Positions 1-22,396 of a stretch of 64,000 bases of DNA are shown in pieces. Within the stretch, counting starts at the first letter, position 1. Each line of letters starts with the position of its first letter. This DNA is from Escherichia coli (lineage in GTDB: Bacteria > Pseudomonadota > Gammaproteobacteria > Enterobacterales > Enterobacteriaceae): NCBI RefSeq assembly GCF_003334305.1, contig NZ_QOWS01000023.1; one strand, 5' to 3'. Under the pieces are notes generated by a model. The model saw only the letters and a program-made list of their open reading frames with translations, was not told where the DNA came from and ran no database searches. A program made the translations under genes and the position numbers.

Positions 1-606
1 CAGGGTTGCAGATTCCATTTCATAGTTCATTACGCCCATCGCCTGCCACTCTTCCATAGAACCTTTAAAGTGACGAACTACGCGACCAGAGTAAGTATCG
101 TAACGTTCCTGGCCTGGGTAGAAGGTATCAGAAGAAGCTGTCACGCCAACGTGAGTTGTCGCGCCAATGGATTTCGCAGCTTCAACCAGCGCAGTCGTAC
201 ATTCGAAATCAGCGACAGCCGGGAATTCCAGCGGTGCGAAGTGCAGGCTCGCGCCATCCAGACGGACAGACGCCGTGGTAACCAGGACATCACCCACATT
301 AATATGCGGCTGAATAGCGCCCGTTGTACCGATACGCAGGAAGGTGCGAATGCCCAGCTGTGCCAGCTCTTCAACAGCAATAGAGGTAGACGGGCCGCCG
401 ATACCGGTAGAGCAGACGATAACAGGTTTACCATCCAGCTCTGCACGCCAGGTAGTGAATTCGCGGTGAGATGCCAGCTTAACCGGCTTATCCATCAGCG
501 CGGCGATCTTTTCCACACGATCCGGGTCGCCAGGGACGATGGCAAGCGTAGCCCCTTGTAAATCGTTTTTAGTGAGGCCGAGATGAAAAACATCAGACTT
601 GGACAT
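1..606 (-). CDS. udp: uridine phosphorylase, N-terminal ~202 codons (gene continues beyond window start)
   Basis: Reverse-strand translation from ATG at 606-604 reads [53 protein letters not shown]..., recognised as E. coli Udp; ORF runs off the window edge. Confidence 0.9.
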
Positions 607-867
607 ATACAACTCCTCTGTGAATCGGTTTAGTCAGAAGAAGCAAAAAGACACTTTACCGAAGGGTTTAACATTTTTTCGTGATACTCATCACCATGGC
701 GCAAATGCGTTGCATAAATTTACCCACCAAAAGTGATTCAAATCACATAAATCACTCTTCATTCTGCAGGACTGCATAAAAGATGAGCCGATTCAGGCAA
801 TGTGATTTGTTGCATGCTGACTATAGTTAACATTGCGCAACATTTTTATAAGGGTACGGAGAATACC

Positions 868-1683
868 ATGGCAACAACACAACAATCTGGATTTACACCT
901 GCTGCATCGCCTCTCGCTTCGACCATCGTTCAGACCCCGGACGACGCGATTGTGGCGGGCTTCACCTCTATCCCTTCACAAGGGGATAACATGCCTGCTT
1001 ACCATGCCAGACCAAAGCAAAGCGATGGCCAACTGCCAGTGGTCATTGTAGTGCAGGAAATTTTTGGCGTGCATGAACATATCCGCGACATTTGTCGCCG
1101 TCTGGCGCTGGAGGGGTATCTGGCTATCGCACCTGAACTTTACTTCCGCGAAGGCGATCCGAATGATTTTGCCGATATCCCCACGTTGCTTAGCGGTCTG
1201 GTAGCAAAAGTGCCTGACTCGCAGGTGCTGGCCGATCTCGATCATGTCGCCAGTTGGGCTTCCCGCAACGGCGGCGATGTTCATCGTTTAATGATCACCG
1301 GATTCTGCTGGGGTGGACGTATCACCTGGCTGTATGCCGCGCATAATCCACAGCTAAAAGCCGCAGTGGCGTGGTACGGCAAACTGACGGGCGATAAGTC
1401 GCTGAATTCACCGAAACAACCTGTTGATATCGCAACCGATCTTAACGCGCCGGTTCTCGGCTTATATGGCGGTCAGGATAACAGCATTCCGCAGGAGAGC
1501 GTTGAAACGATGCGCCAGGCGCTGCGGGCTGCTAATGCGAAAGCAGAGATTATCGTCTACCCGGATGCCGGGCATGCATTCAACGCTGATTATCGCCCGA
1601 GCTATCATGCCGAATCTGCGAAAGATGGCTGGCAGCGTATGCTGGAATGGTTTAAGCAGTATGGTGGGAAGAAGTCGCTGTAA
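868..1683 (+). CDS. ysgA: dienelactone hydrolase family protein (271 aa)
   Basis: ORF track 802-1683; internal ATG at 868 (MATTQQSGF...) gives the 271-aa length I recall for YsgA; position between udp and metE as in K-12. Confidence 0.8.
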   Translation: MATTQQSGFTPAASPLASTIVQTPDDAIVAGFTSIPSQGDNMPAYHARPKQSDGQLPVVIVVQEIFGVHEHIRDICRRLALEGYLAIAPELYFREGDPNDFADIPTLLSGLVAKVPDSQVLADLDHVASWASRNGGDVHRLMITGFCWGGRITWLYAAHNPQLKAAVAWYGKLTGDKSLNSPKQPVDIATDLNAPVLGLYGGQDNSIPQESVETMRQALRAANAKAEIIVYPDAGHAFNADYRPSYHAESAKDGWQRMLEWFKQYGGKKSL

Positions 1684-1692
1684 TGAGAAAAG

Positions 1693-1717
1693 ACCGGGTG
1701 GTATTACCACCCGGTTT
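1693..1717. terminator. bidirectional stem-loop between convergent ysgA and metE
   Basis: accgggtgg/ccacccggt inverted repeat with 5-nt loop, flanked by T-rich sequence on both strands. Confidence 0.5.
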
Positions 1718-1721
1718 GGAT

Positions 1722-3983
1722 TTACCCCAGACGCAAATTCTGCGCCGCCTGCACCATGTTCGCCAGTGCCGCGCGGGTTTCTGGCCAGCCGCGCGTTTTC
1801 AGGCCACAGTCTGGGTTGACCCACAGGCGCTCTGCCGGAATGCGTTTTGCCGCTTTCTTCAGCAGGGCTTCAATCCATTCCACGCTCGGTACGTTTGGCG
1901 AGTGAATGTCATAGACGCCTGGACCGATTTCATTCGGATAATCAAACTCTTCAAACGACTCCAGCAACTCCATGTCGGAACGCGAGGTTTCGATGGTGAT
2001 GACGTCTGCATCCAGCGCCGCAATGGAATCCATGATGTCGTTGAACTCGCAATAACACATGTGAGTGTGGATTTGTGTGTCATCTTTCGCCACGGCGGCG
2101 TTGATACGGAAGGCCTCTACGCCCCACTGGAGATAGGCGTCCCAGTCGCTACGACGCAGTGGTAAACCTTCGCGCAGCGCCGGTTCGTCAATCTGGATGA
2201 TACCAATCCCTGCCGCTTCCAGATCGGCCACCTCATCACGCAGCGCCAGCGCAATCTGTTTGGCGATGGTTTCACGGCTGACATCTTCACGCGGGAACGA
2301 CCAGCAGAGTATGGTCACCGGCCCCGTCAGCATCCCTTTCACCGGTTTGTCGGTCAGCGATTGCGCATACTTCGCCCACTCCACGGTAATCGGTGCCGGG
2401 CGACTAACGTCACCAATAACAATCGGTGGCTTCACGCAGCGGGAACCGTAGCTCTGTACCCAACCGTTTTGCGTAAAGACAAACCCGTCGAGGTGCTCGC
2501 CAAAGTATTCCACCATGTCATTACGCTCGGCCTCGCCATGTACCAGCACATCCAGTCCCAAACGTTCCTGTTCAACAATGGCCTGCCTGATATGTTCCGC
2601 AATGCCCGTGCGGTAGTTATTGGCGTCGAGATTGCCCTTTTTGAAATCCAGACGCAGGGTACGAATTTCCGTGGTTTGCGGGAAAGAACCAATCGTGGTG
2701 GTCGGCCACGCTGGCAGTTTAAAACGCGCACGCTGGGCTTCGGCACGCACTTCATAGACATTCGCACGCTGGCTGTCCTGGGCGGTGATCGCCGCCAGAC
2801 GCTTTTCTACCGCCGGATTATGTACGCGGGTAGAGTGACGACGTGCCTGAATCGGGGCGCTCCACTCTGCCAGAGCTGCCGTGTCACCACTGTTCAGCGC
2901 ATCGCGCAGCAGTGCCAGTTCATGGCATTTTTGTAGGGCGAAGGCAAACCAGCTTTTCACTTCTGCATCAAGACGCGTTTCCACGCTCAGGTCGATGGGG
3001 CTGTGCAGCAACGAGCAGGAAGATGCCACCCACAAATCACGTTTGCCGACAATGTCCTTAATTTGCGCATATTTCTCGGTAAGATCGGCGCGCCAGACGT
3101 TACGACCATTGATCAGACCCGCAGACAGCAACCAGTCAGAAGGCAGGCGCTTGTGCAGTTCAGCAACGTCATCTTTACCATGTACGAGGTCAACATGCAG
3201 ACCCTGAACAGGCAGCGCAGTAATCGTGTCGAGATTTGGCGTTACGCCTTCAAAATAGGTGGTCAGCAGCAGTTTCACCTGTCCCTGGAGCGCGTCGTAA
3301 GCGGGTTTGTATGCGTCCAGCCACGCCTGTGGTAGTTCCAGTACCAGCGCGGGTTCATCAATCTGTACCCACTCGATGCCGCGTTTCGCCAGTTCTGCCA
3401 GCACTTGCTGATAAACCGGCAGAATGTCGTTCAGCAGGCTAAGGCGGTCAAACTGTTCACCTTTCACTTTCCCCAGCCACAGGTAAGTAACCGGCCCCAG
3501 CAGCACAGGCTTAACGTTGTGGCCCAGCGCCAGCGCCTCGTCCACTTCCTCCAGCAGCTGCGTCCAGGTCAGTTTGAACTGTTGGCCTTTAACGAATTCC
3601 GGCACCATGTAGTGATAGTTGGTGTTAAACCATTTGGTCATTTCCGCTGCCGCCGCAGGTTCGCCAGTCGGCGCACGTCCACGACCAATACGGAACAGGG
3701 TGTCGATATCTACCGAACCGTCTTTGTTCTGATGACGTGGCGGAACATTACCCAGCAGCAGACTGGTGGTCAGAACATGATCGTACCAGGCAAAATCGCC
3801 CACCGGCAGCAGGTCGATACCCGCTTGCTTTTGTTGATCCCAGTGACGAGCACGCAGTTCACGCCCTACTGTCAGCAGTTCTTCACGCGTGGAGTTCCCC
3901 GCCCAATAACTTTCTTGCGCTTTTTTCAGCTCGCGACGCAGGCCAACGCGAGGGAAACCGAGGGTGTGATTAAGAATTGTCAT
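1722..3983 (-). CDS. metE: cobalamin-independent methionine synthase (753 aa)
   Basis: 753-aa [33 protein letters not shown]... recognised as MetE. Confidence 0.97.
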
Positions 3984-12738: not shown

Positions 12739-13626
12739 ATGGATGCAAAACAAACGCGGCAGGGCGTATTACTCGCTCTTGCCGCTTATTTTATTTGGGG
12801 TATTGCGCCAGCGTACTTCAAGTTGATTTACTACGTGCCCGCCGATGAAATCCTGACGCATCGCGTGATCTGGTCGTTTTTCTTTATGGTGGTGCTGATG
12901 AGTATTTGCCGCCAGTGGTCCTATTTAAAAACGCTGATTCAGACGCCACAGAAAATTTTTATGCTGGCAGTCTCTGCCGTGCTGATTGGTGGCAACTGGC
13001 TACTGTTTATCTGGGCGGTGAACAATCACCATATGCTGGAAGCGAGCCTTGGTTACTTTATTAACCCGCTGGTGAACATTGTGCTGGGGATGATTTTCCT
13101 CGGCGAGCGATTCCGCCGGATGCAATGGCTGGCGGTGATTCTGGCGATATGTGGCGTGTTAGTCCAGCTGTGGACTTTTGGTTCGCTACCTATTATCGCG
13201 CTGGGACTGGCATTTAGTTTTGCCTTCTACGGTCTGGTACGCAAGAAGATTGCCGTTGAAGCGCAAACCGGCATGTTAATCGAAACCATGTGGCTGCTGC
13301 CCGTGGCGGCAATTTACCTGTTTGCTATTGCCGACAGCTCAACCAGCCATATGGGGCAAAACCCGATGTCGCTGAATTTACTGCTGATCGCCGCCGGTAT
13401 TGTCACTACCGTACCGCTGTTGTGTTTTACCGCCGCTGCCACGCGCTTGCGTCTCTCAACGTTAGGCTTTTTCCAGTACATTGGCCCGACGCTGATGTTC
13501 CTGCTGGCTGTGACGTTTTATGGTGAAAAACCGGGTGCCGATAAGATGGTGACTTTCGCCTTTATTTGGGTGGCGCTGGCAATTTTTGTTATGGATGCGA
13601 TTTATACGCAGCGTAGAAAAAGTTAA
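12739..13626 (+). CDS. rarD: EamA/DMT-family transporter RarD (295 aa)
   Basis: ORF MDAKQTRQGVLLALAAYFIWGIAPAYFKLIYYVPADEILTHRVIWSFFFMVV... polytopic membrane protein; synteny. Confidence 0.9.
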   Translation: MDAKQTRQGVLLALAAYFIWGIAPAYFKLIYYVPADEILTHRVIWSFFFMVVLMSICRQWSYLKTLIQTPQKIFMLAVSAVLIGGNWLLFIWAVNNHHMLEASLGYFINPLVNIVLGMIFLGERFRRMQWLAVILAICGVLVQLWTFGSLPIIALGLAFSFAFYGLVRKKIAVEAQTGMLIETMWLLPVAAIYLFAIADSSTSHMGQNPMSLNLLLIAAGIVTTVPLLCFTAAATRLRLSTLGFFQYIGPTLMFLLAVTFYGEKPGADKMVTFAFIWVALAIFVMDAIYTQRRKS

Positions 13627-13636
13627 GAATTAACAT

Positions 13637-13662
13637 GGGTAGGCCGTTTAATGAGCCTACCC
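13637..13662. terminator. stem-loop between convergent rarD and the 114-aa ORF
   Basis: gggtaggc ... gcctaccc inverted repeat followed by a T-run on the + strand. Confidence 0.45.
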
Positions 13663-13672
13663 ACTGACTTAT

Positions 13673-14017
13673 TTATCTTTTTTTGAAAAAAATTAAGATA
13701 AGAAAAAGAACAATATTTGTTACAGGAAGTACCCCCAAAACTCCCCAGTACTTACTCCATCCTAGAGACATCGTATATCTACCAAGGATTTGACAAAACC
13801 CAAAACTTAACCCTATACCTATACTTCTTAAATTTAATGTCGTAGTCAGGCTTAAAATAAATAGAACAAGGATGGTAATAGCCCACCACAATAACCATGC
13901 CTTAACAAAATCAGATTTTTTGCTGTAAGGTTCTTTACCCAAGAACAACTGCCAAAAGTTACCATTCCCCATATAGAATCCATTCCCCAAGATATTGTTT
14001 ATAGAATAAAAATACAT
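13673..14017 (-). CDS. hypothetical small hydrophobic protein (114 aa), AT-rich
   Basis: ORF MYFYSINNILGNGFYMGNGNFWQLFLGKEPYSKK... with two hydrophobic stretches; lies in low-GC DNA; no family recognised. Confidence 0.4.
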   Translation of the reverse strand: MYFYSINNILGNGFYMGNGNFWQLFLGKEPYSKKSDFVKAWLLWWAITILVLFILSLTTTLNLRSIGIGLSFGFCQILGRYTMSLGWSKYWGVLGVLPVTNIVLFLILIFFKKR

Positions 14018-14292
14018 TCCAATTATATAATTAAAATATACCCCATCAATAAAAACTTACACACTCTAAATTACTACTGTATAGTTATCAATGCAAAGAC
14101 TGCTATATTGCATATATATGCAAACCTCATAATTCAGGTAATATATATATTCAAAACAATTATATATAAAAAACAATGTAAAAAATATTCAAATCATCCA
14201 TCAGAAATATATTCTACCCATCCAGGCTTGAGCATTTATCACGCTTTCAGTTCATAATCTATACATTAACATCATGGTCAATATTAATAACT

Positions 14293-14571
14293 TTGAATGA
14301 TATCAACCTGGCTTTGAGTTTTATTCTGGTTATTAATAATACCTATGTAAATATCAATATTGGAGCAAAAAGAATAAGAGATACTGGATGTAAGGCAATC
14401 TACTTTGTATTGATTTCATTGGGTTTGACACTTTTTTCTATTATCTCTGCAGCAATTGAAGGGGTGAGATGTGAGTCATTAAGCGTCCAACTCAACGTGG
14501 CATGGATATTATTCACAACAATTATATTATCTGCGATTCCCTCGGCTAAAATGTCGCTGTCAGCACACTAA
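14293..14571 (+). CDS. hypothetical small hydrophobic protein (92 aa), AT-rich
   Basis: ORF MNDINLALSFILVINNTYVNINIGAKRIRDTGCKAIYFVLISLGLTLFSIISAAIEG...; divergent from the 114-aa ORF across a very AT-rich spacer. Confidence 0.35.
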   Translation: MNDINLALSFILVINNTYVNINIGAKRIRDTGCKAIYFVLISLGLTLFSIISAAIEGVRCESLSVQLNVAWILFTTIILSAIPSAKMSLSAH

Positions 14572-14588
14572 CTTACTCACAGCGACAT
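14551..14588. repeat. perfect 10-bp inverted repeat (atgtcgctgt ... acagcgacat) spanning the 92-aa ORF stop codon
   Basis: Read directly; lies immediately before the corA-like fragment. Confidence 0.5.
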
Positions 14589-14595
14589 CGTATAG

Positions 14596-14738
14596 TTACA
14601 GCCAGTTCTTACGCTTAAAGTACAGATACGGTGTCAGGCCCGCAAGGATCATAAAGATAATCGCGCCAGGGTAGCCAAAGCTCCACTTCAGTTCTGGCAT
14701 AAACTCAAAGTTCATGCCATAGCTGGAGGCAATCCGCG
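14596..14738 (-). pseudogene. diverged duplicate of the corA 3' end (last ~43 codons plus stop)
   Basis: Reverse-strand translation ...[43 protein letters not shown] matches the CorA C-terminus encoded at 16307-16449; ~143 nt alignable with several mismatches; upstream part of the 67-aa ORF is unrelated. Confidence 0.75.
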
Positions 14739-14922
14739 TAGGAAAAAGTTTCCTAATCGGTAAATTCAACATTTTGTTATTAACAATGAGCAAGACCAAT
14801 CATTAACGAGGTTCTCTTCAGAGATGTAATGAAAAAATGTGAAATGTACTTCTTTTTTAAATATTTTTTTACCCTAGCATTTGTTCTCGAATTGACATTG
14901 AGCTTAAATATAACCAAGGCAA

Positions 14923-15777
14923 ATGCAAATGAATAACATATTACTTCCGCCAATTAATATTCCCTGTACACTTTTCGAAACTATTAGTTTATTCGATGAT
15001 TTTTCTGCTGATGATATGCAATATGGTGATATGGTAGAACAAGACTTTCTCTCACTCGGCCTAAGCGATATCTCAGCAAAAGTTGATCCTTACAGACTTA
15101 TTAAATACCATTTCCCTGGCCCAGGTTCTATTAATGTTGCTTTTAGTGCCTCAAGTTCCGGAACAAAAATATCACAACGTGAATGCACTGATATTTTATT
15201 TGCAGAAATGAAAGAACTAGCAAAAATGTTTTCCTTTTTTGGACAAAATAAAACACTTATCGAAGATCTGATTGAACATTTTAGATATAGAAATGGCAGC
15301 AATTTTCATAGCCAACAATTAAATTTATCTTTTCATGAAAAAATAAATAAATATGGTTATAATAGTCCAATACGAATAATCAAAGAATGTATCGAAAATG
15401 GCATTAATTCAACTCCCTCGACAGGATACCAACCTCTTATCCTGCAAAGCATTAAAACCAAATTACTTTCATCAAGACTAAATAAATTTAATGACTTCGA
15501 GGACAGTTTTAATGGCTTAGGAATCAGTGTTCATGATATTTCAGCTCAAAAAATATCTCTTTTAAGTTTTCAAAACTACGCTATAGGATGGAGTGCAACA
15601 ATTCATTTTGTAGCACAGGACCACTTCGGTCTTGATGTAACTGATATCAAAAACAAGACTTACAGCAAATATAGATTTTTTCGCATATGGTTCTTTTTAC
15701 AACGGCATAAAGACTTTGCTTTCAAACCTTTTTTCACCAATTTTAACACTATCGAAAGAATCGAAAATTATCTATGA
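14923..15777 (+). CDS. hypothetical protein (284 aa; 282 aa if the second ATG at 14929 is used), no signal peptide
   Basis: Uninterrupted ORF in very AT-rich DNA; aagg Shine-Dalgarno-like motif ~10 nt before the ATG at 14929; stop overlaps the start of the next ORF (ATGA). Confidence 0.65.
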   Translation: MQMNNILLPPINIPCTLFETISLFDDFSADDMQYGDMVEQDFLSLGLSDISAKVDPYRLIKYHFPGPGSINVAFSASSSGTKISQRECTDILFAEMKELAKMFSFFGQNKTLIEDLIEHFRYRNGSNFHSQQLNLSFHEKINKYGYNSPIRIIKECIENGINSTPSTGYQPLILQSIKTKLLSSRLNKFNDFEDSFNGLGISVHDISAQKISLLSFQNYAIGWSATIHFVAQDHFGLDVTDIKNKTYSKYRFFRIWFFLQRHKDFAFKPFFTNFNTIERIENYL

Positions 15778-16253
15778 AAAGCAAACTCCAGAAAATTATA
15801 TTATGTTTATTTCTTCTATGCTGCATCTATAATTTATGGACATTGCGTCCTGTACAGATTTTGTATACATACTCTGATGCTGGCAATTCAGTCTTTCTGG
15901 TCGTTGATCATCTGCCATGGACTGACAGCGATAAAATAAATTGGTATCTGAAGCATCAGAATGAAATTAAAAATCAACATCCCCTACCAGAAGGTAGTTG
16001 GCATACCTGGTATGTCATTGATATCGGTAATGGCTTCACTGACTATAAAAAATATATCGAAGGGCCGTATGAAGATCTCTACTGTTTCCCGACAATTAAG
16101 AGCAATGATAATTGCATCGTGAAAAATTACTTAATGGTTATTAATGAATACCCTTATCGTAACACTCATATTGGTATTAACGATTTTACTGAGTATCAAT
16201 TAACACAAGAAAATAAAATAGAGCGAGTTTTCAATCCGCATGACTTTAAATAA
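15774..16253 (+). CDS. hypothetical protein (159 aa) with N-terminal hydrophobic anchor or signal segment
   Basis: ORF MKSKLQKIILCLFLLCCIYNLWTLRPVQ...; 4-bp ATGA overlap with the upstream ORF suggests translational coupling. Confidence 0.65.
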   Translation: MKSKLQKIILCLFLLCCIYNLWTLRPVQILYTYSDAGNSVFLVVDHLPWTDSDKINWYLKHQNEIKNQHPLPEGSWHTWYVIDIGNGFTDYKKYIEGPYEDLYCFPTIKSNDNCIVKNYLMVINEYPYRNTHIGINDFTEYQLTQENKIERVFNPHDFK

Positions 16254-16271
16254 GACAATTTTTAGAAATAA

Positions 16272-16300
16272 GCCGGATAAAAAAATAGCTTTATCCGGCA
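16272..16300. terminator. bidirectional stem-loop between the 159-aa ORF and corA
   Basis: gccggataaa ... tttatccggc inverted repeat with A/T runs. Confidence 0.5.
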
Positions 16301-16306
16301 CTCATA

Positions 16307-17257
16307 TTACAGCCAGTTCTTGCGCTTAAAGTACAGATACGGTGCCAGGCCCGCGAGGATCATAAAGATAATCGCGCCTGGGTAGCCGAAACTCCACTTC
16401 AGTTCTGGCATAAACTCAAAGTTCATCCCATAGCTGGAAGCAACGAGCGTCGGCGGCAGGAATACCACGGATACCACCGAGAAGATTTTGATGATGCGGT
16501 TCTGCTCGATGTTGATAAAGCCCATCGCCGCCTGCATCAGGAAGTTCACCTTCTGGAACAGGGATTCGTTATGCGGCAGCAGGGATTCGATATCTCGCAG
16601 GATTTCACGCGCCTGCTCCAGTTGCCCACCCGGTAAACGCGCCTTGCGTACCAGGAAGTTGAGCGCACGCTGGGTATCCATCAGACACAGGCGAACTTTC
16701 CAGCCGATATCTTCCAGTTCCGCCAGCGTGGAGAGCGCCTCATCGTACTCATCGCCCTGATGCCCTTCCATAATTACCCGGCTCAACTGCTCCAGATCGC
16801 TGTAGATATTTTCAATTTCATCTGCCAGCTGTTCGATTTTGGTTTCGAACAGATCCAACAGCAGCTCGTAGGCGTTACCGTCCACCATTGACTGGCTACG
16901 GGCGCGCATACGATACAGACGGAATGCAGGCAGTTCACGCTCACGCAGAGTAAACAGACGACCATCACGGATGGTAAATGCCACAGTGGAGTTACCGGCG
17001 TGATCTTCCGCATCTTCAAAGAAGAAGAAGGAGTGAATATGCAGGCCGTCGTCGTCTTCAAAGAAACGTGCCGATGCTTCGATGTCTTCCAGTTCCGGGC
17101 GGGTTGCCAGGCTCTGGCCAAGTTCAGATTGTACGCGCAGTCGCTCGTCGTCGTCCGGTTCGACAAGATCAATCCATACTGCATTTACAAGGGGTTGTGA
17201 CTCTTCGACTTCCAGCCGGGTCAGTCGGTTATTTTCCAGTTGAAATGCGCTCAGCAT
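16307..17257 (-). CDS. corA: Mg2+/Co2+ transport protein CorA (316 aa)
   Basis: ORF track 16307-17272; ATG at 17257 gives [31 protein letters not shown]... and the GMNFE signature near the C-terminus. Confidence 0.95.
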
Positions 17258-18391: not shown

Positions 18392-18430
18392 AACGATAGT
18401 TTTGTGTCAGATACTGAAGATGGCGCAGAT

Positions 18431-18460
18431 GCCGGATGCGGCGTAAACGCCCTATCCGGC
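18431..18460. repeat. REP element
   Basis: gccggatgcggcgtaaacgccctatccggc between convergent yigE and uvrD. Confidence 0.55.
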
Positions 18461-18537
18461 CTACATGACGTTGCAATTTATTGAATATGAATGATTTTTT
18501 AGGCCAAATAAGGTGCGCAGCACCGCATCCGGCAACG

Positions 18538-20783: not shown

Positions 20784-21500
20784 TTATATCAGCGAGGTCA
20801 GAGATGCCAACCGGGAAATTTCCAGATGCGGCAGTAAACGGCTGTCCCAGGTTTGCATCAGATCGCCATTTTCCGGTCTGATCCAACAAGCCTGCATTCC
20901 GCTGCGAATTGCCCCACCCACGTCAGTGGTGAGATCGTCCCCAACATGTAAGATCTCGCCGATCGGCACGTTGAGTTTTTCCGCAGCCAGAAAGTACATA
21001 TCGCTGAACGGTTTTGAGCGCCCGTGCGGGCCAGCGCGCAGCACAAACTCAAAATAATCCCCCAAACCAAACAGTTCCGGCTGGGCGTTACCGTTGGTGA
21101 TCGCCACCAGCGGCCATTTCTTCGCCAGCTGTTTTAAGGTGTCGTGAGTTTGCTGCGGGACGTCGATTCGGCTGCGCCATTTGGCAAAGTTAATCATTGC
21201 TGCGTGTGCGCCTGCACTGGCTTCTTCGGCACTCAGCCCGGCGTCGAGCATCGCTTGTTCAATCGAACGAAAACGCCAACGCGTCACGTCGTGATAAATC
21301 TCGGGTTCCGCTTCCCGTACCGCCTGGCGCAGGCGTTGCAGATCTTCATTCTGGAAGCTGCGCAGCGCCGGATGATAATTTTGCACAAAGGTAAGCGCCT
21401 CTCGCTCGGTGCGCAAAATCACCGGACGGTTATCGTAAAGGGTATCATCCAGGTCAAAGGTGAGCGCCGAGATGCGCCCCAAAGGCCGGTAAAAACGCAT
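20784..21500 (-). CDS. yigB: HAD-family phosphatase YigB (238 aa)
   Basis: [37 protein letters not shown]... with the HAD DxDDT motif; synteny. Confidence 0.85.
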
Positions 21501-22396
21501 TATTTCCCCCGTTTGGCGCGTGGATGCGCCGCATCGTACACCGAGGCAAGGTGTTGAAAATCAAGATGAGTATAGATTTGCGTGGTGGAGAGGTTGGCAT
21601 GACCCAGCAGCTCCTGCACACCACGAAGATCGCCGCTCGACTCCAGCATATGCGTAGCGAACGAGTGACGTAATTTATGTGGGTGAACGTGATTATTCAG
21701 CCCTTGTTTTATGCCCCATTCGGCAAAGCGTTTCTGCACATTACGCGCGGAGATACGCTTGCCCAGTTTCGACAGAAAAAGCGCGTCGTCTTCGCTACCA
21801 AACAGGTCGCGCAAATCAAGCCAGTGCTCAATCCACGCCACAGCGTTGCGACCAATCGGCAGGCGGCGCTCTTTGCTGCCTTTCCCCATTACCCACACTT
21901 CACCAGACTCCAGGTCGAGGTGTTTGATATCCAGCCCCACCAGCTCGGAAAGACGCAGACCCGCGCCGTACATCACTTCCAGCATTGCACGGTCGCGTAC
22001 AGCGAGGGGATCGTTGATATCAATATCCAGCAGCCGATTCATATCGTCGACGTCGATGTTTTTCGGCAGATGACGCGGCGCTTTCGGTGCCGAAACTCCT
22101 TTCGCCGGGTTAGCTTTGAGTTCGTTCTGGCTGACCAGCCAGTCAAAAAAGCTACGTAGCGCAGAAAGCCGTAACGCGAGGCTTGCTGCTCCCAGCCCTT
22201 TACGGCGACTGCGTACAGCAAAATTGCGCACCATCGTCACATCACATTGCTGCCAGCTTTGCAGGCCGTTTTCGCTGGCAAAATTGATGATCGCCTCAAG
22301 CTGACGCTGGTAGTTAAGCAGGGTTATCGGGCTAAGCTGGCGCTCCACGCTCAGATAACGTAGGTAGCGTTCTACATCGGTGTGTAAATCGGTCAT
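21500..22396 (-). CDS. xerC: tyrosine recombinase XerC (298 aa)
   Basis: [40 protein letters not shown]... with C-terminal HxxR...Y catalytic region. Confidence 0.95.

Follow-up and report, generated by a model that had tools for sequence, protein, structure and literature searches.

Homology-facilitated illegitimate recombination (HFIR) has been documented in E. coli as a rare event (about 3e-10 per recipient), and linear DNA that enters cells of this species more frequently ends up as a circle integrated through a single crossover than it is processed by HFIR (PMC3240628). HFIR has also been proposed as the process by which T6SS effector-immunity modules become stacked in Vibrio (PMC5361080). 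A PAAR-fused DUF3289 protein of Yersinia was found to be colicin M-like and to cause the rounding up of E. coli cells when it is sent to the periplasm, and its DUF943 partner neutralises this effector (Geller et al. 2024, PMC11148199). Here, we describe a locus of Escherichia coli where a DUF3289/DUF943 pair is situated between rarD and corA, preceded by a fragment of the corA 3′ end that we denote corA′. Our literature search returned no paper in which rarD, corA and yigF are named together or in which YPO3983 is named, and none that describes this locus. As detailed below, corA′ is very probably the scar of a recombinase-free joint between two alternative haplotypes of the rarD-corA interval. 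The population counts refer to 5426 complete E. coli genomes, while 16 E. coli loci were compared at the level of single bases. The neighbours of the toxin gene outside E. coli were defined by a protein search and contig look-ups.

The window, i.e. the whole stretch of 64,000 nucleotides of E. coli DNA that was analysed, has the gene order recQ-pldA-yigI-rarD-[variable]-corA-ysgD-yigE-uvrD. The rarD gene for an EamA transporter (12739-13626, plus strand) is present as an 888-nt allele, of which the last ~10 nt vary by cassette type. It is followed by an AT-rich cassette (13673-14571), here called alt, which takes the place of the K-12 genes yigG and yigF and which is found in 1430 of the 5426 genomes. 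The alt cassette includes a gene for a hypothetical protein of 99 aa (13673-13972, minus strand) and an ORF of 92 aa (14293-14571, plus strand) with a weak resemblance to YigG (33% over 45 aa; NCBIfam PRK11371, E = 3e-4). The GC content of the alt segment between rarD and the fragment is 21-40%. Next come corA′ and the native spacer and promoter region of the toxin gene (14764-14928, plus strand), which can be aligned with the corresponding rarD-toxin spacers of Salmonella and of one further enterobacterial contig (L024) over just ~110 nt beside the start codon. The toxin and immunity genes are separated from the intact corA gene by a GC-rich hairpin with a T tract (16272-16299, minus strand), which resembles a terminator and accompanies the module in all module-bearing loci. 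The intact corA gene (16307-17257, minus strand) is 951 nt long and encodes protein WP_000947159.1. Further downstream in the window, yigE is directly followed by uvrD (18392-18537); in several strains, including Nissle 1917, EM18-18-42 and SCU-301, a 903-nt gene of the ‘SAM hydrolase/SAM-dependent halogenase family’ is located between these two genes.

By analogy with the Yersinia proteins, the two genes of the module are predicted to specify a colicin-M-like toxin and its immunity protein. The first gene (14929-15777, plus strand) encodes a stand-alone protein of the DUF3289/YPO3983 family with a colicin-M-like toxin domain (PF11692, E = 6e-82; TIGR03034, 429 bits versus a cutoff of 156). 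The DUF3289 domain spans residues 12-280 of the 284-aa protein, which is to say that it extends from end to end, and neither a signal peptide nor a fusion to PAAR, VgrG or Hcp was found in this protein. The second gene (15774-16253, plus strand) encodes a DUF943 protein of the cognate immunity family (PF06092, E = 2e-26) with an N-terminal membrane anchor, and its start overlaps the stop of the preceding toxin gene by 4 nt. The module has rarD and corA as its neighbours and lies outside any T6SS cluster. Its alleles in E. coli share 88% to 100% identity. A mosaic module was seen on a metagenomic E. coli-like contig (L022; 2-819 versus 833-3316), where the first ~820 nt of the toxin gene are 84% and the remainder is 98% identical to the window. 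BL21 carries its own DUF3289/DUF943 pair together with a corA′ fragment, and its yigG gene has an internal stop. Since BL21 is the host in which the toxicity of the Yersinia DUF3289 effector was shown (PMC11148199), the resident BL21 immunity evidently gave no protection. In an Enterobacter sp. (L011, 3499-6319), two consecutive DUF3289/DUF943 pairs are located at an unrelated locus between an oxidoreductase gene and a sugar kinase gene, which indicates that arrays of this pair form elsewhere too.

A first-pass annotation of the window had reported a diverged duplicate of about 143 nt of the corA 3′ end, including the stop codon. This was confirmed, as positions 14596-14738 align without gaps to positions 16307-16449 with 11 mismatches in 143 nt. 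The secure core of corA′ spans 137 nt (14596-14732) and has 8 mismatches with corA of the window (94.2% identity); the identity to K-12 corA over the same 137 nt is 95.6%. In a BLAST search against a ~30-kb set of local loci the core was matched with an E-value of ~7e-58, and a repeat search returned a single direct repeat of 147 nt with 92% identity and a spacing of 1711 nt (14596-14742 versus 16307-16453). The stop codon (TTA on the plus strand) is the exact point at which the homology of the fragment to corA starts, and there is none downstream of this stop. The repeat is a real CorA-family pseudogene fragment, far beyond what can be expected by chance. As a feature, the corA′ pseudogene (14596-14742, minus strand) comprises the terminal 137-147 nt of a copy of corA with its stop codon, the N-terminal part being absent. 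Strain A7 has the same sequence as the window over positions 13500-16600 (100% identity), and there the same 147 nt carry the RefSeq/PGAP annotation ‘CorA family divalent cation transporter, incomplete, missing N-terminus’. The fragment is already annotated, it is present in about one third of the E. coli genomes, and it is ordinary in kind. Besides an integration event, recombination with a donor carrying a divergent corA had been proposed as its source, and a comparison with corA alleles of other species had been suggested as a check. The proposed recombination comes close to the haplotype exchange that we describe below. corA′ is of the E. coli type (127 of 132 positions identical to K-12 versus 119 of 132 to Salmonella). 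An origin of corA′ from another species was rejected on these grounds. Records classed as plasmids were also among the matches to the corA tail (~18 records).

The corA′ fragment is non-functional and decaying, while the CorA protein stays invariant. It is in frame with the corA coding sequence, of which just 45-48 codons are left, and the encoded tail differs from CorA by the Ala to Thr change that had been noted before. In each of the 15 RefSeq E. coli loci that were inspected, CorA has one and the same protein accession number. The intact corA tails vary at 13 sites, all of them synonymous, compared to 4 nonsynonymous and 3 synonymous variants that occur in the fragment only (Fisher p-value = 0.007), and the latter variants include a Tyr to Asp change in the YGMN motif. 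Most of the 8 core mismatches in the window fall into two groups: those at positions 73, 85 and 121 are inherited silent allelic differences, and those at positions 16, 39, 49 and 82 are changes specific to the fragment. Silent diversity in the 16 E. coli loci forms a gradient beside the variable cassette, with 3-4% over the 3′ 600 nt of corA and a value near zero at the 5′ end of the gene. The idea that corA′ is an orphan 3′ end of a polymorphic toxin gene, in which a constant 5′ region would precede a variable toxic 3′ region, was rejected, given the identity of CorA in the loci inspected and the 13 synonymous sites. We also consider it very improbable that corA′ has been retained as a small membrane peptide, composed of the GMN motif and TM2 of CorA, that modulates CorA activity. 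An ORF of 67 codons (14596-14799) does run across the fragment, each of the nine fragment-bearing loci that were inspected keeps this frame open, and the majority of the differences between corA′ and corA are synonymous. However, these synonymous differences are inherited allelic variants, whereas the variants unique to the fragment show the 4:3 ratio given above with a substitution in the essential YGMN motif. In addition, the sole start codon of this ORF is a TTG within joint-derived sequence, the PGAP call is that of a pseudogene, and 932 module-bearing genomes lack the fragment altogether.

Comparison of the rarD-corA interval across strains, which had likewise been proposed as a check, allowed us to define four configurations. 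The arrangement rarD-yigG-yigF-corA, as found in the K-12 and ST131 types, accounts for ~2750 genomes, a number that was obtained by subtraction and not by a direct count. Although they occupy the same locus in the same species, the YigG proteins of the K-12 and ST131 types are 76% identical and the YigF proteins 70%. The alt cassette without the module is present in ~22 genomes (1430 minus 1408), for example in SMN197SH3. The third configuration, J1, is rarD-[yigGF or alt]-corA′-module-corA. Its joint was detected in 1710 of the 5426 genomes, with O157:H7, O111, BL21 and E24377A as examples, and 1408 genomes have J1 with the alt cassette as in the window, so that the alt cassette co-occurs with the toxin module in 1408 of its 1430 genomes. 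The fourth configuration, J2, consists of rarD, a 5′ remnant of yigG, the module and corA without corA′, and is represented by the 932 genomes mentioned above (e.g. Nissle 1917, ATCC 25922 and NC101). The module is present in 2649 of the 5426 genomes, and J1 and J2 together cover 2642 of these, which substantiates the earlier view that the scar is tied to the two-gene module. The K-12-type and ST131-type loci have neither the module nor the fragment, and SMN197SH3 equally has a single corA tail. Since module-less genomes have no fragment, the reading of corA′ as a scar of the module survives, as far as it is testable. All 2656 module matches in the 5426 genomes are chromosomal and no circular or extrachromosomal copy was seen; 7 genomes contain two separate module matches. 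Individual loci have undergone further changes. In EM18-18-42, an IS1 element is located between yigG and a 147-nt remnant of the DUF943 3′ end, and yigF, corA′ and the toxin gene have been deleted, as has the greater part of the immunity gene. In O111:H2 08-3342 rarD is frameshifted, and in EC11 yigF has an internal stop.

The same alternatives are found outside E. coli. Salmonella genomes with identical CorA (L025-L032) have either yigF/yigG or DUF943/DUF3289 between corA and rarD, and the contig L024 has the order rarD-DUF3289-DUF943-corA. This either/or choice of cassettes in Salmonella and E. coli shows that the polymorphism is shared across genera, and the two cassette types are old alternative haplotypes of the rarD-corA interval. 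The region from the module to corA is collinear between E. coli and Salmonella, with 79% identity. The module-type loci of Salmonella and L024 occur without a corA duplication, with one tandem arrangement set apart. This arrangement, in the complete Salmonella genome CP053409.1 (L026, 4667-8886), is composed of two units of 2.1 kb that are 98.5% identical, and each unit contains 285 nt of the corA 3′ end, DUF943, DUF3289 and 210 nt of the rarD 3′ end. The units are joined from corA (+285) to rarD (−210), and the differences between them are spread along the whole unit. Between the two units, there are 4 amino acid differences in the toxin and 5 in the immunity protein. The stack in CP053409.1 is an independent one; its joint is of the same type as in E. 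coli, but the breakpoints are different.

The joint in E. coli has a distinct structure. Homology of the fragment to corA is clean through position 132 of the repeat, after which four mismatches occur within 8 bases (positions 133 and 138-140). The novel joint zone (14728-14742) consists of this mismatch cluster and the motif GCGT(A)GG that follows it, and it is the same in all fragment-bearing loci examined. The motif represents a microhomology, GCGT(N)GG, between corA (GCGTCGG) and a rarD-like sequence (GCGTAGG). A joint signature of G133, T138 and A145 followed by AAAAAGTTTCC is common to all nine fragment-bearing loci, with yigGF as well as alt backgrounds, which points to one origin of the joint. 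Immediately adjacent is a putative remnant of rarD, rarD′ (14737-14763, plus strand), which reads CGT AGG AAA AAG TTT CCT AAT CGG TAA and would continue the rarD frame to the stop codon. The sequence GCGTAG(G)AAAAAGTT at the joint matches the end of rarD in the window (13611-13624), where the first 15 nt of rarD′, which contain one additional base, can be aligned with the final 14 nt of rarD (14 of 15 nt). In a local alignment against the whole window this match ties with a random hit for the best score, and we identify rarD′ because of its position and not because of its score. Positions 14737-14763 probably correspond to the last 27 nt of the rarD allele of the module haplotype. This assignment is suggested by the finding that the final ~10 nt of rarD are particular to each cassette type, by the start of the J2 joint at position 14760, one nt before the TAA of rarD′, and by the corA′-rarD′ joint that is likewise present in the Salmonella stack. 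Homology of rarD between the cassette types stops at locus position 1619, which is 8-11 nt before the stop codon, and a BLAST search with a synthetic query of rarD plus the joint extends 14 nt beyond the rarD part in window-type genomes. The rarD end of the module haplotype with its spacer would then read ...CGTAGGAAAAAGTTTCCTAATCGGTAA. A synthetic query for such a ‘pure’ parental joint, in which rarD runs straight into CGTAGGAAAAAGTTTCC, was covered in none of the 5426 complete E. coli genomes. The first-pass annotation had recognised the corA repeat at this joint, but the 27 rarD-like nucleotides and the alternative left cassette had been missed.

These observations bear on the possibility that a mobile element, now degraded, was integrated at an attachment site within the corA 3′ end and thereby reconstituted this end, as had been put forward before. 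A direct repeat of a gene 3′ end around AT-rich cargo (GC content 25-38% versus ~52% in the flanks) does have the classic appearance of an island. Nevertheless, we regard this scenario as most unlikely. As noted in the first-pass annotation there is no integrase, and the interval from rarD to corA has the ORFs of two small hypothetical genes, the DUF3289 gene and the DUF943 gene. The only tyrosine recombinase nearby is the housekeeping XerC (21500-22396), encoded in its usual dapF-xerC-yigB-uvrD context. The tRNA search did not find any tRNA gene, and there are no mobility genes. The region 14743-16306 is not bracketed by inverted repeats and has no transposase ORF; a transposon-borne or IS-borne origin of the cargo was rejected because terminal inverted repeats and a transposase are lacking. 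The module is also not an incomer at a corA attachment site, since it is a positional orthologue of the genes in Salmonella and L024, where it occurs without the duplication. Moreover, the repeat ends at a rarD-like remnant, and the J2 genomes carry the module without any corA repeat. Finally, the breakpoints in CP053409.1 (+285 and −210) differ from those in E. coli (+140 and −27), which argues against a fixed attachment site or att core.

The alleles of corA′ and of the intact corA gene provide an indication as to which haplotype each of them came from. The 3′ flank of the fragment is the native corA flank of the resident left cassette: in locus L002 it is the K-12 yigF-corA spacer, and in the window and L004 it is the alt-cassette hairpin, which is also the corA flank in the alt-only genome. 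The 3′ flank of the intact corA is always the module hairpin in module-bearing loci. Near the joint, every fragment has the bases G121 and A124 of the K-12/yigGF type. The intact corA next to the module always has C121, and it has G124 and C139 in all loci but the window itself; these bases are shared with the J2 type. The fragment thus appears to belong with the left cassette, and the intact corA with the module haplotype. Farther from the joint the alleles of the fragment track the left cassette, the O157 fragment being identical to the corA of the alt-only genome over positions 1-85. Chimeric alleles of the O157 type suggest that the left cassette was later swapped by homologous recombination with a crossover inside corA′. 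The intact corA tail of the window is identical to that of the alt-only genome. Recombination has since scrambled the alleles, so that the assignment of parents from these markers is weak. The allele pattern in SMN197SH3 is compatible with, but not decisive for, its being the product of a pop-out event at the repeat.

On this basis, we infer the following order and direction of events, with a mechanism of the HFIR type. corA′ would be the native 3′ end of a corA gene that once closed an interval of the yigGF type, and the ancestral haplotypes would have been rarD-yigG-yigF-corA and rarD-DUF3289-DUF943-corA. One illegitimate end-joining event via GCGT(N)GG would have connected corA of the first haplotype, at about +140 from its stop, to rarD of the second haplotype at about −27. 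The outer side or sides would have been resolved by ordinary homologous recombination after DNA transfer, as in HFIR. The product would be rarD, the left cassette and corA′ joined to rarD′, the toxin/immunity genes and corA, with the two cassettes in tandem and with the intact corA being the toxin haplotype's own gene. Subsequently, yigGF may have been exchanged for alt by homologous recombination with rarD and the 137-nt corA′ as arms. Neither a recombinase nor a mobile element would have been involved. In support of this, the left side of the locus is collinear with yigGF and alt genomes up to corA +137, and the right side is collinear with J2 module-type genomes. Among E. coli genomes, the yigGF parent is widespread. 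A pure rarD-module parent is known from Salmonella and L024 and occurs in 0 of the 5426 E. coli genomes, which means that one of the proposed parents is seen only in Salmonella and one other taxon. It counts against our account that this parent is missing from the E. coli collection, that HFIR is a rare event in this species, and that the four clustered mismatches in the 8 nt before GCGT lack an explanation. The allele association, i.e. a fragment of the yigGF type and an intact copy of the module type near the joint, favours an unequal exchange, and we judge the chance that such an exchange between haplotypes, of the HFIR type, made the stack to be slightly better than even.

The same allele association is relevant for a Campbell-type event, in which end-joining of a 1.71-kb segment of the toxin haplotype (from rarD −27 to corA +~140) gave rise to a circle that was then inserted into a yigGF chromosome by one crossover in the 137-nt corA tail. 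Such an event would predict donor alleles, linked to the module, in the joint-proximal part of the fragment and recipient alleles in the intact copy. The opposite was observed, and the two could be reconciled if the crossover took place within the last ~15 nt. Furthermore, 137 nt is a short target for RecA, and the exclusively chromosomal location of the module matches gives no hint of a circle. What speaks for this route is that the repeat spacing of 1711 nt is the size of the circle that it requires, that one crossover yields a direct duplication without extra assumptions, that integration of circularised DNA is commoner than HFIR in E. coli (PMC3240628), and that the 2.1-kb stack of diverged units in Salmonella has the same topology. 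We regard it as a possible, albeit rather unlikely, origin of the stack.

Less probable still is a tandem duplication in situ, from rarD −27 to corA +140 within the toxin haplotype, with a later replacement of one of the cassettes by yigGF and then by alt. The joint does have the form expected from a duplication, the end of one unit being joined to the start of the next. Salmonella CP053409.1 provides an example of a tandem with the order module, corA′ joined to rarD′, module, and chimeric fragment alleles such as that of O157 support a replacement in which corA′ served as an arm. However, two rare steps are needed, and a synthetic query for a module-corA′-module stack with the joint of the window was matched in 0 of the 5426 E. 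coli genomes. The 1.5% difference between the CP053409.1 units is spread throughout, which looks like two alleles and not like a fresh duplication.

Returning to the exchange between haplotypes that we prefer, a broader interpretation can be offered tentatively, and we consider it less likely to be right than wrong: the rarD-corA interval may be a long-lived polymorphism across genera under balancing selection, with the stand-alone toxin/immunity pair as one state and membrane proteins of the YigG/YigF type as the other, where cassettes were repeatedly stacked without a recombinase via corA′-rarD′ joints, and where the 137-nt corA′ repeat serves as a handle for swapping of the left cassette or for pop-out of the toxin pair. 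If this is true, the scar would be part of a recurrent process by which arrays of toxin and immunity genes are built and edited beside a housekeeping gene. This putative stand-alone toxin/immunity pair is found next to corA in about half of the complete E. coli genomes; O157:H7, BL21 and Nissle 1917 belong to this group, and K-12 does not. Independently of the broader interpretation, corA′ marks a clean and datable joint within one of the most polymorphic small intervals of the E. coli core chromosome, and it indicates that the stacking of cassettes is possible without the machinery of mobile elements. Taken together with the silent diversity of 3-4% in the adjacent half of corA, the scar could serve as a compact natural system for studies on illegitimate recombination and on balancing selection acting on genes for interbacterial competition. 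For annotators, it is relevant that the ‘CorA pseudogene’ represents a rearrangement joint and not a decayed paralogue. For users of BL21, it is relevant that this strain has a DUF3289/DUF943 pair of its own.

With the att duplications of integrase islands, the locus shares a direct repeat of a gene 3′ end that brackets low-GC cargo while the target gene remains intact. It differs from these islands in having no integrase or fixed core, in its variable breakpoints, and in a cargo that related genera have as a native part of this locus. The T6EC1/T6IC1 pair of Yersinia pseudotuberculosis (PMC11148199) matches the module in its two Pfam families and in their order, and its immunity protein likewise has a membrane anchor at the N-terminus. 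The Yersinia effector T6EC1 is fused to PAAR and encoded in a T6SS operon, whereas the E. coli protein is a bare DUF3289 domain whose gene lies beside corA, with an activity that is predicted. HFIR and circle integration (Amarir-Bouhram et al. 2011, PMC3240628) provide an experimentally established route in E. coli to a microhomology joint combined with homologous recombination; that system was based on engineered plasmids in the laboratory, while the events described here are deduced from natural polymorphism. The closest parallel is found in the T6SS immunity arrays of Vibrio cholerae and the orphan 3′ ends of Rhs and CDI systems (PMC5361080). There are three differences. The duplicated gene in E. 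coli encodes a housekeeping Mg2+ channel with an invariant protein sequence instead of the constant portion of a polymorphic toxin, the second cassette consists of genes for small membrane proteins of the yigG/yigF type and not of toxin genes, and the toxin is a stand-alone DUF3289 protein outside a T6SS cluster. What these systems and the rarD-corA interval have in common is a toxin-immunity module beside a conserved gene, a displaced older 3′ end that is left beside the new arrangement, and a structure with one homologous side and one illegitimate joint for which no recombinase is needed.
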